Shown here piece by piece: positions 50,596 to 52,736 of a stretch of 64,000 nt of DNA. Source of the DNA: a virus (taxonomy: Duplodnaviria > Caudoviricetes); the IMG/VR virus record IMGVR_UViG_3300009185_000001, positions 128,001-192,000 of that record; one strand, 5' to 3'. Position 1 is the stretch's first letter; each line of letters opens with the position of its first letter. The notes under the pieces are model-generated. The model ran no database searches. It saw only the letters and a program-made list of their open reading frames with translations, and was not told the DNA's origin. A program made the translations under genes and the position numbers.

Positions 50596-50955
50596 ATGCC
50601 AAGAGGTAGACCAAGAAAAAACATTTCTACAAAGAATCTAATTGATAAAAGTATTGTGGGTGTACGCAAGAAACGTACCAAGTCTATTGTTCCAAGTATT
50701 GTGAAAAGACCAGTGGAAGAATTGACTACTAAAGAACGCGAAGAAAGAGAAAAATGGTTGGATAGCTTCTTGCCCAAGATTGATCTCAATAAGAAAACTG
50801 TTGTCCTTGATTTGAATAAGAATGTAGAAGCATGTAAAGAACATACCAAAGGTGCTTGCGTTCGCCCTGACATATATCTAGACTATGGATGTAATCACTG
50901 CTCGCTATTTGAGAATTGTGCATGTCGCCTAAAAAAAGTTAAAAAAAATTATTGA
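50596..50955 (+). CDS. Basic protein with AT-hook-like N-terminus and Cys cluster
   Basis: MPRGRPRK; C...C...CxxC...CxC; TTGACA-17-TACTAT at 50561-50589. Confidence 0.65.
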   Translation: MPRGRPRKNISTKNLIDKSIVGVRKKRTKSIVPSIVKRPVEELTTKEREEREKWLDSFLPKIDLNKKTVVLDLNKNVEACKEHTKGACVRPDIYLDYGCNHCSLFENCACRLKKVKKNY

Positions 50956-50980
50956 CTTTACCGGAAATTTGAAATATAGT
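50952..50980 (+). promoter_or_regulatory. sigma70-type promoter driving the structured-RNA/tRNA region
   Basis: TTGACT-17-TATAGT with TTACCGGAAAT in the spacer; no ORF follows. Confidence 0.7.
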
Positions 50981-50986
50981 CCTATA

Positions 50987-51500
50987 CATGATTTCGAATG
51001 ACAAAGCTTGGTTGGTAAATAATAAGAGTTTCTGTGGTGGTTACTCTTATTATTTCGGAAGTCCTACCTTCTGTGGTGGTAGGTAGGACTTCCTTAAATT
51101 TGTGAGTTGGTTCCCGATGAGCCAATGGGACTGGGAATACTCGGTCGAAACCAAAATCGGAAATTGATATTTGACATTTTAATTTTTTGGTAGATAGAGT
51201 AGTAATACCTATCCCTGTGGACTCGAAAGAGGAGTGATATCTGAAAAGAAGCGTTTCGAGAGTATTCGCACTCACTTACCAAATAATATTTTAAACCCGC
51301 CATGCCTCTGCTTGCAAGAGTAGTTTCTGAAGGCCAAGGCAACTAAGCAAGTCATGCATAATTTGGCGGGTGTTTTTATCAAGCGCAGATGCTATTTAAA
51401 AAGCTCTACCGCGACAGATGACAATGCAATGTTTCCGGAAACAACATTTAATCTGTAGGGAACTTCTCCTTAATAATCAAAAAAGAATGAGAAGTCTTGG
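50987..51500 (+). ncRNA. Unidentified highly structured RNA, 5' part
   Basis: Consecutive stems at 51017-51055, 51057-51093, 51188-51281, 51295-51372 and 51462-51496; GNRA-type loops; no credible ORF. Confidence 0.6.
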
Positions 51501-51514
51501 TAATAAATTTAAAT

Positions 51515-51601
51515 GGGTTACTATACCGTTAAAGAGGCGGTCCAGACTGTAAATCTGGCGTGTTCTGCACTCACTAGGAGCATTACCTAGGTAGCCCACC
51601 A
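51515..51601 (+). tRNA. trnY: tRNA-Tyr(GUA) with non-canonical T-loop
   Basis: Acceptor GGGUUAC/GUAGCCC, anticodon arm CCAGA-CUGUAAA-UCUGG, long variable arm, T-arm CUAGG-AGCAUUA-CCUAG, ACCA. Confidence 0.85.
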
Positions 51602-51639
51602 TTTTAATATAGAAAGAATAGATAGTGTTAGTAATAAAT

Positions 51640-52000
51640 TTTGACTGGGATGTTGGTCTAGAAAATCATCATCTAAGGAGTGGAACTGGACGTGGAGAAC
51701 TGGTAATTAGTAGGGACACAATTCATATAAGCCCTACATCCTATTTATAGGTACGGAGATGACCGTGAATTGCGTTTCACAGGATAGAGAAATCTATAAC
51801 CCCTTTAGCTTTAAAAAGCACACCAGTTTATTTTTGATAAGTCGGACGGGGAATGTGTGCTGTGCATTCTTAAAAAGCTCACCGTTGCAGACGTATCACC
51901 AGACCCGATTAGGCAGGGGGTAACAAGTAACCTTCGTCCAACGTGTTAAAAACACGGTAGCCAATGAAGAGCTTTCTGGAATTGATATTTAAAATTATAT
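51640..52000 (+). ncRNA. Unidentified highly structured RNA, 3' part, containing a 23S rRNA H42-H44-like junction
   Basis: GACUGGGAUGUUGGUCUAGAAAAUCAUCAUCUAAGGAGUG ... GCACACCAGUU plus many short hairpins. Confidence 0.6.
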
Positions 52001-52015
52001 TGTAAATAGTTTATA

Positions 52016-52088
52016 TGCGGGTTACAGTTCTGGCGAACTGAGGGGTTTCATAAGCCTCTTTAGGTGGATTCGATTTCCACACCCGCAA
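52016..52088 (+). tRNA. tRNA with CAU anticodon (Met or lysidine-Ile2)
   Basis: UGCGGGU/ACCCGCA, D-stem CAGU/ACUG, loop UUCAUAA, T-arm GUGGA-UUCGAUU-UCCAC; no encoded CCA. Confidence 0.8.
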
Positions 52089-52096
52089 TTTTTAAT

Positions 52097-52231
52097 TCCT
52101 CATTAGACGAATTGGTAAAGTCACGGGACTGTGGGAGAAGCAGGTTAGCGTAATATGAGTTCGATTCTCATAACTCCAAGTCTAATCCCGCGCAGCAATG
52201 CATTCTTCGTTCAAGTCGAAGATGAGGAGCA
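52097..52231 (+). tRNA. Type II tRNA body with a 50-nt insertion in the anticodon loop
   Basis: UCCUCAU/AUGAGGA, D-arm GAC/GUC, anticodon stem CGGGA/UCCCG, variable arm GCA-GCAA-UGC, T-arm CUUCG-UUCAAGU-CGAAG; insert 52131-52180. Confidence 0.75.
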
Positions 52232-52289
52232 TTTTAGAATAGATAAAAAGGTTCTCGATGATCCAGATAAAAAAAATCGAAAATACTTC

Positions 52290-52318
52290 TTGACCTTTTC
52301 AGAAAAAATTGTTAGAGT
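52290..52318 (+). promoter_or_regulatory. sigma70-type promoter for the second tRNA group
   Basis: TTGACC-17-TAGAGT. Confidence 0.6.
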
Positions 52319-52393
52319 ATTTGAAGATTAGTAAAGGTTATCTGAACCTTGTAAAAAAATCAGAAAAGATTTTTGATAGAATAGAATTTATAT

Positions 52394-52736
52394 GGTCGAG
52401 TGGTGGAATGGCAGACACAACGGACTTAGAGAAATTTGAGCTTTGATTGGGAAACCTTTCAAATGTAACTTGTCAAATTCGGTGAAGGGTTTAAACTCCT
52501 AATACCGAGCCAAGCATCGAAAGATGAAGGTGTAGAGACTTGACGGCAAGAACCTAAAGCGAAAGCAATGGTTAAGGTAAAGTCCAGACTACAAACAGAT
52601 TGAGAAAAGTAAATCCCGAAAGGATTGAACAGAGCGGTAAATACGCTGACTGACGAATCTGGTAACGAAAGTTATAGTAGTAAGAAAATCCGTTGCCAGT
52701 AATGGCGTGAGGATTCGAGTTCCTCCTCGACTACCA
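52394..52736 (+). tRNA. trnL: tRNA-Leu(UAA) split by a group I intron
   Basis: Exons 52394-52427 and 52685-52736 rejoin as ACGGA-CUUAAAA-UCCGU; acceptor GGUCGAG/CUCGACU; ACCA. Confidence 0.92.
52428..52684 (+). mobile_element. Group I intron (257 nt) in the tRNA-Leu anticodon, no ORF
   Basis: Follows U34 and ends in G. P1 CUU/AG with UUGAG; AAAUUCGGUGAA; AAUACCGAGCCAAG; GUAGAGACUU; AAGGUAAAGUCC; P9.0-like ACUAC/GUAGU. Confidence 0.9.

Follow-up and report, generated by a model that had tools for sequence, protein, structure and literature searches.

The question raised by this locus is whether a gene-free, highly structured kilobase at the head of a phage tRNA cluster encodes one large RNA or a collection of small ones. 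The region (positions 50,987 to 52,000) belongs to a window of 64,000 nucleotides, the whole stretch of DNA analyzed here, which lies inside the complete genome of a freshwater, T4-like phage (202,880 bp, with terminal repeats and 32% GC). Upstream of the region lies a 119-aa gene of unknown function (50596-50955), and on its other side a tRNA cluster begins at 52016. A first-pass annotation had proposed either a divergent member of the GOLLD/ROOL type of giant phage RNA or a single new giant class, counting one or two RNAs. Comparison with related loci favors a different reading, to which a probability of about 0.9 is assigned: the kilobase encodes about ten small RNAs that fold separately, strung together at the head of the phage tRNA operon. 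Features of the window described below are all on the plus strand.

The basic character of the region is as first described. A dedicated promoter had been claimed, and a sigma-70-type box, TTGACT-17-TATAGT, is found at 50952..50980, with a 10/12 match and a predicted start near 50987. This box is found again at further promoters of the genome, and relatives have it in the corresponding position, behind the same gene; within the region, promoter-type matches show no excess over chance (20 found, 18.4 expected). Credible ORFs had been denied, and the only frames are of 41-97 aa, with relatives carrying frame-breaking indels of 1 and 2 nt. The stems, put at more than ten, are well above that number, and folding of the entire region gives z = -2.8 relative to shuffled sequences. 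The tRNA-Tyr placed inside the region was also recovered, as a tRNA-Tyr(GUA) cloverleaf at 51515-51601. The 3' limit drawn at 52000 did not hold, there being no terminator-like site at this position; the array runs past it and, without a terminator, into tRNA-Met(CAU) at 52016..52088. The kilobase is promoter-led, conserved, structured, tRNA-associated, and non-coding, without a family-level Rfam hit.

Searches of Rfam with the whole region and its sub-regions, at the gathering score and at E<=10, returned a single match, abiF, below its cut-off (28.1 bits against 37). RNase P, SRP, and tmRNA were not matched, nor were GOLLD and ROOL, and the covariance models of GOLLD, ROOL, and OLE likewise gave no match at the gathering score or at E<=10. 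Comparison by blastn with cultured phages and plasmids yielded only a generic tRNA-Tyr with a canonical T loop, and a literature search for the module sequences yielded unrelated primers only. Membership in GOLLD or ROOL was consequently abandoned, parts of the region having other templates (abiF, 23S rRNA, and tRNA-Tyr).

Related loci were gathered via the upstream protein and DNA patterns, giving about 50 loci from freshwater phages (labeled L### where one must be told apart), and combinations of modules were counted over the 50 distinct loci with enough sequence after module B, which served as the search anchor. Modules E, C, F, H, and G occur in 14 different combinations in these loci and are gained and lost one at a time, with F standing alone in 10 loci, E in 6, and G in 5, while tRNAs are inserted at seven junction types. 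No large core is common to all arrays, as every module except B, the anchor, is missing from many of them. Downstream of the shared gene and promoter, B, J, and F are present in L002 and L123, from which A, E, C, H, and G are all missing, and L125 and L126 proceed from one A hairpin to a new promoter and then an ORF. Nesting is also observed: module D, free or inside B in L002, L016, and L126, is inside a group I intron here. This pattern shows that modules are exchanged between phages as cassettes. As a point against the reading, C, H, and G mostly travel together.

The folds themselves are separate and selected. Helices within modules are 96-100% paired, compared with about 10-60% for slid controls, a contrast to be read with the caveat that kinship of the sequences inflates covariation counts. 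Double changes occur in 5/6 pairs of P1 and 4/5 of P4 in module F, 5/5 of P4 in E, and 2/5 of P2 in G5. The homolog and covariation check that had been suggested thus upheld helices within modules and none, at good support, between them: of five candidate inter-module helices, each has one double change, in 16 similar sequences that provide low power. GC content is 44% in the modules and 10% in the linkers, the latter being as between tRNA genes. Independent assortment, closing stems of their own with compensatory changes, and AU-rich linkers together argue for an array of separate small RNAs. A single new giant class is contradicted by blocks that assort independently and by supported helices that all close within a block, and the count of one or two RNAs gives way to many self-closing modules in the relatives.

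A GOLLD-like alternative, in which a single large, ornate RNA has domains that may be absent and a tRNA set within it, would still account for the mostly kept order B-E-C-F-H-G and for the joint presence of C, F, H, and G in 15 of the 50 loci, and the linker of GOLLD may likewise contain tRNAs (PMC12286853). This reading is nevertheless very improbable, considering the lack of a universal core, the changes of position of E and H, the absence of any inter-module helix with at least two double changes (at low power), and the nil result with the GOLLD, ROOL, and OLE models. The array resembles GOLLD (RF02032) and ROOL in being phage-encoded, near tRNA islands, and of comparable overall length, but differs from them in having no sequence or model match, no universal domain, and no supported long-range pairing; the 3' region of GOLLD and the intertwined ends of ROOL are cores kept family-wide, for which the array has no counterpart.

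Beyond the window, the same array slots are filled in L149, L146, L234, L243, L273, L327, L142, L139, and L153 by at least five further structured modules, J and K among them, that recur, measure 50-170 nt, and have no Rfam match. In L164 (12860-13380), an ORF with a phosphoribosyltransferase-type motif is inserted between two J-type pseudoknots of the array.

Two of the modules have named host templates. Module C (51294..51372) is an abiF-type hairpin, homologous to RF03085, with a 46-nt structured insert in its loop, and it is because of this insert that its score remains below the cut-off, the insert-free ortholog in L016 reaching 49.6 bits. Its stem is 97% paired, with double changes in 2 of 7 pairs, and it aligns with copies linked to Abi_2; in L173 and L182, a nearly identical hairpin precedes Abi_2 genes by 20 nt (E 2e-55). 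No Abi_2 gene was found in the complete phage genome, where the search controls were positive, or among 20 related contigs that bear arrays and are fragmentary. Module C is thus an antitoxin homolog without its toxin, and its 46-nt insert is conserved. In Clostridioides difficile, abiF RNA neutralizes AbiF in trans via direct binding (10.1101/2025.04.15.648962), and an abiF RNA has already been reported in cyanophage S-CREM1 (PMC9964418). Of the features of the abiF family, which includes RCd22, the antitoxin of AbiF/Abi_2 toxins in C. difficile, module C has retained the stem that closes the hairpin, the conserved run on the 5' side, and the bulge on the 3' side; it differs in being a single motif, where RCd22 has two, in carrying the insert, and in lying in a tRNA operon without a toxin gene. 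Minimal abiF hairpins are also present in 42 viral loci (L166-L206), most of them without Abi_2 on the contig (present in 2 of 29 tested). Many of these hairpins lie between a stop codon and a U run, and those with U runs downstream could act as terminators.

Module H (51643..51829) contains both ends of the uL11-binding domain of 23S rRNA (E. coli 1051-1108), flanking a structured insert of about 125 nt. Its 5' part aligns to positions 1051-1091, with a profile E value of 6e-6 against rRNA, and its 3' end to 1091-1108, the insert being located near 1090. In the 5' part, the L016 form is identical to a bacterial 23S rRNA at 33 of 40 positions without gaps. The top of H42, H43, the 1082-1086 junction, and the base of H44 are all in order and paired, U1060, A1067, and A1088 are present, and positions 1082 and 1086 pair as C-G; compensatory pairs are A1062-U1076 and C1082-G1086. 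Module H is, by this homology, a copy of the uL11-binding site, reproducing both strands of the GTPase-associated center (H42-H44), and it departs from that center in being free-standing and split by the 125-nt insert. The copy in the window is without G1071 and C1072, leaving the H43 loop 2 nt shorter, and its H44 loop deviates from the consensus; in L016 and L144, the two nucleotides and the H44 loop are all preserved. In rRNA, positions 1071-1072 form tertiary base triples. No paper on a phage RNA of this kind was found in the literature. A separate array module in L136 (reverse strand, about 990-1075 from its end) and L250, represented by one sequence type, matches the uL1-binding helix of 23S rRNA (E. 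coli about 2118-2132) exactly over 10 nt and resembles it in the flanks.

Two pseudoknots form a further group, one of them outside the coordinates first annotated. Module B (51106..51175) folds into a compact H-type pseudoknot; a hairpin may be present in the A-rich loop, and a tail follows at the 3' end. Stem 1 is 92% and the pseudoknot 96% paired across 68 non-redundant sequences. The module is usually the first after the promoter, a strict promoter pattern preceding 31 of 103 copies, and its tail is common to G2, T, and other modules of relatives. A minimal second copy (52249..52281) contains a compensatory change in the pseudoknot helix. Module T (52334..52380), behind a second promoter (52290-52318), is a ToxI/antiQ-like H-type pseudoknot supported by compensatory variants; it aligns to Lactococcus lactis antiQ and a ToxI-type repeat of Clostridium perfringens, with p values of 0.002-0.004 in 2 of 40 tests. 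With natural ToxI/antiQ repeats, B shares only a partial match in the tail. Both modules resemble ToxI/antiQ and the pseudo-ToxI of phage phiTE, a phage-borne RNA antitoxin mimic (PMC3594212), in being H-type pseudoknots with A-rich loops and single-stranded tails, T also bearing a possible likeness to antiQ in sequence, but they are single copies in tRNA arrays rather than tandem repeats, and B has no demonstrable ToxI homology. A search of 185,579 prokaryote species genomes with the B pattern gave one match, on a phage-like contig and in no bacterial toxin context; an uninformative search for ToxN in the small phylum to which the genome of that contig belongs came back empty, and a toxN search gave no match, its control being likewise silent. 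Assignment of B to the preQ1-I riboswitch was rejected, the minimal copy having no Rfam match at E<=10 and no ORF following it in arrays. In another phage (L329:1303-5700), B lies directly upstream of three different ORFs, the 3' strand of one copy overlapping GGAG, which hints at cis-regulatory use.

The remaining modules have no such template, and A, B, E, F, G5, and G2 all match nothing in Rfam. Module A1 (51017..51055) is a 13-bp hairpin with the conserved loop UUCUGUGGUGGU, which is borne by four different stems, and module A2 (51057..51093) carries the same loop on an unrelated stem, the pair giving z = -6.4. A single A hairpin followed by a new promoter is present in L125, L126, and L128. 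The tetranucleotide UGGU reaches 4-6 copies per 100 nt in the A region (window 50997-51093; L125:690-780; L126:3715-3805), compared with 0.35 genome-wide; as the complement of the ACCA end of tRNA, as in T-box antiterminators, it offers a lead. Module E (51186..51283) is a multibranch RNA with five covarying helices, 97-100% paired in 13 sequences, and an invariant possible kissing pair; in relatives, it occupies other array positions. Module F (51376..51503) has a closing stem and four arms, represented by 28 sequences. Module G5 (51835..51898) consists of nested stems with an invariant loop and junction, and module G2 (51899..51990) is a three-arm RNA with its own closing stem followed by the shared tail, both being supported by covariation in relatives. 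G2 is usually fused to G5, which stands alone in an unrelated 230-kb phage (L381), and tmRNA often lies downstream of G2 in relatives. A tmRNA with an unusually long tag directly follows module G in L087 (2558-2969), L156, L157, L158, and L165, with none at that place in the present genome.

Other likenesses were weighed and set aside. Alignment of A, B, C, D, E, F, and G to 16S and 23S rRNA gave no support beyond chance: the 14 nt that E has in common with one 23S rRNA and the one weak gapped match of F are attributed to chance, the family profiles giving no support (E 0.37 or none). G5 may conceivably be a reduced uL11/uL10 site, with which it has only the junction word in common (E 0.22). 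Resemblances to preQ1-I, TPP, c-di-GMP, twister, hatchet, and hammerhead RNAs found no support in Rfam.

The 11-nt motif reported at 51396, 51811, and 51870 is present at all three sites, with 0.24 copies expected per window and no further copy in the 203-kb genome. The idea that it is one recurring functional element was not borne out by conservation. The copy at 51396 falls in a variable apical loop of F and is kept in only 1 of 28 F homologs. The copy at 51811 makes up the loop and 3' strand equivalent to H44 in module H, where 2 of 9 homologs have it, and the copy at 51870, which forms the conserved junction of G5, is retained in 19 of 22. The three-fold occurrence is lineage-specific and falls into three different contexts.

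Between modules F and H lies the tRNA-Tyr (51515..51601), the only tRNA-Tyr found in this genome, many relatives having a canonical one. It is missed by both default ARAGORN and Rfam because its D and T loops are non-canonical: the usual elbow, a D-loop GG and a UUCRA T loop, is replaced by UAAAGA and AGCAUUA. A pattern scan retrieved 57 loci, about 10 being expected by chance, and 22 distinct sequences form full cloverleaves in which all stems covary. The two words are co-conserved in all 22, including the D-loop word, which was not part of the search pattern. The tRNA retains the encoded CCA, G1-C72, A73, the GUA anticodon, the long variable arm, and full stems, among which are the identity elements of bacterial tRNA-Tyr, and it is probably a working tRNA with an altered elbow. 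The family (L340-L396) is spread over many unrelated phages from gut and freshwater, and only one of these tRNAs is called by default ARAGORN. Downstream, positions 52097-52230 contain a tRNA with a 50-nt insert in its anticodon loop where relatives have an uninterrupted tRNA-Asn, and tRNA-Leu(UAA) at 52394-52736 is split by a group I intron (RF00028, 50.5 bits), the 3' part of which harbors module D (52597-52662).

In the proposed mechanism, one host-type promoter would give rise to a polycistronic precursor comprising the separate small RNAs and then the tRNAs. Modules would fold by themselves and be cut out at the AU-rich linkers, presumably by host tRNA-maturation enzymes, yielding stable RNAs. 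Those with templates would copy protein-binding host RNAs, namely the antitoxin of the AbiF HEPN toxin (C), the uL11/GTPase center (H), and a ToxI/antiQ-type pseudoknot (T). C, and possibly T, would occupy abortive-infection RNases, as phiTE pseudo-ToxI does (PMC3594212), H would occupy uL11 or a factor reading the uL11 site, and the tRNA-Tyr with its altered elbow would keep translation going. By this analogy, a decoy function toward host proteins that bind RNA is given a little better than an even chance of being the main theme of the operon; for A, B, E, F, G5, and G2 it would be extrapolation only. Several findings weigh against it: these six modules have no template, B is next to a toxin in no bacterial genome of the 185,579 species, C is single and interrupted where RCd22 has two motifs, the H of the window is without 1071-1072 and has a changed H44 loop, and the p values of T stem from 40 comparisons.

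The same separate RNAs could instead tune host translation rather than block defense, with H titrating uL11 or uL10-(bL12)4, thereby altering the stringent response or ribosomal-protein autoregulation, and the others recruiting housekeeping proteins. H being a copy of an rRNA protein site, the embedding of the array among tRNAs and tmRNA, and the block of a relative that resembles the 23S uL1 site would all be in keeping with this alternative, which is rated unlikely given that the template of C is solely defense-related, that T may resemble type III antitoxins, and that no module besides H matched rRNA beyond chance. A cis-acting role within the tRNA operon, whether as leaders, attenuators, processing marks, or protectors of the 5' end, appears less probable again. 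The frequent promoter-proximal location of B (31/103 copies by the strict pattern), its position ahead of ORFs in other phages, once overlapping GGAG, the U runs that can trail A and abiF hairpins, and a shared 3' tail that could be a cut signal would fit such a role; yet the invariant unpaired bases and elaborate folds of E, F, G, and H exceed the needs of processing marks, the second B follows a tRNA rather than a promoter, and modules can vanish while the tRNA genes stay. Small selfish or hitch-hiking elements, such as unknown ribozymes spread because tRNA arrays release them harmlessly, would explain the patchy distribution and the nesting in each other and in an intron, but there is little to commend them when no mobility gene or known ribozyme core was found and two modules copy specific host RNAs.

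Small stable RNAs from the tRNA clusters of phages are a decades-old finding to which no function has been assigned, those encoded by the T4 and T5 clusters (such as T4 RNA C and D) being examples. The present array resembles them in consisting of structured non-tRNA RNAs presumably co-transcribed and processed with phage tRNAs, and differs in having about ten modules, shuffled among relatives, some with identifiable host templates. Two cassettes with named host templates make the question of function testable, the orphan abiF RNA against AbiF toxins and the free uL11 domain against uL11 or RelA. Six RNA motifs that are supported by covariation and missing from Rfam also emerge from the region, along with a tRNA-Tyr family that is widespread but missed by standard gene finders. 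The region further provides a caution for genome scans that a structured kilobase beside phage tRNAs is not necessarily one giant RNA. More broadly, it is possible, if doubtful, that large lytic phages maintain RNA decoys in a dedicated operon with shuffled content, as the RNA counterpart of anti-CRISPR gene clusters, each cassette copying a host RNA that binds a defense or stress protein. If this were true, A, B, E, F, G5, and G2 would point to undescribed RNA-gated host systems, and H would be a free-standing mimic of a ribosomal site acting on uL11-linked signaling.
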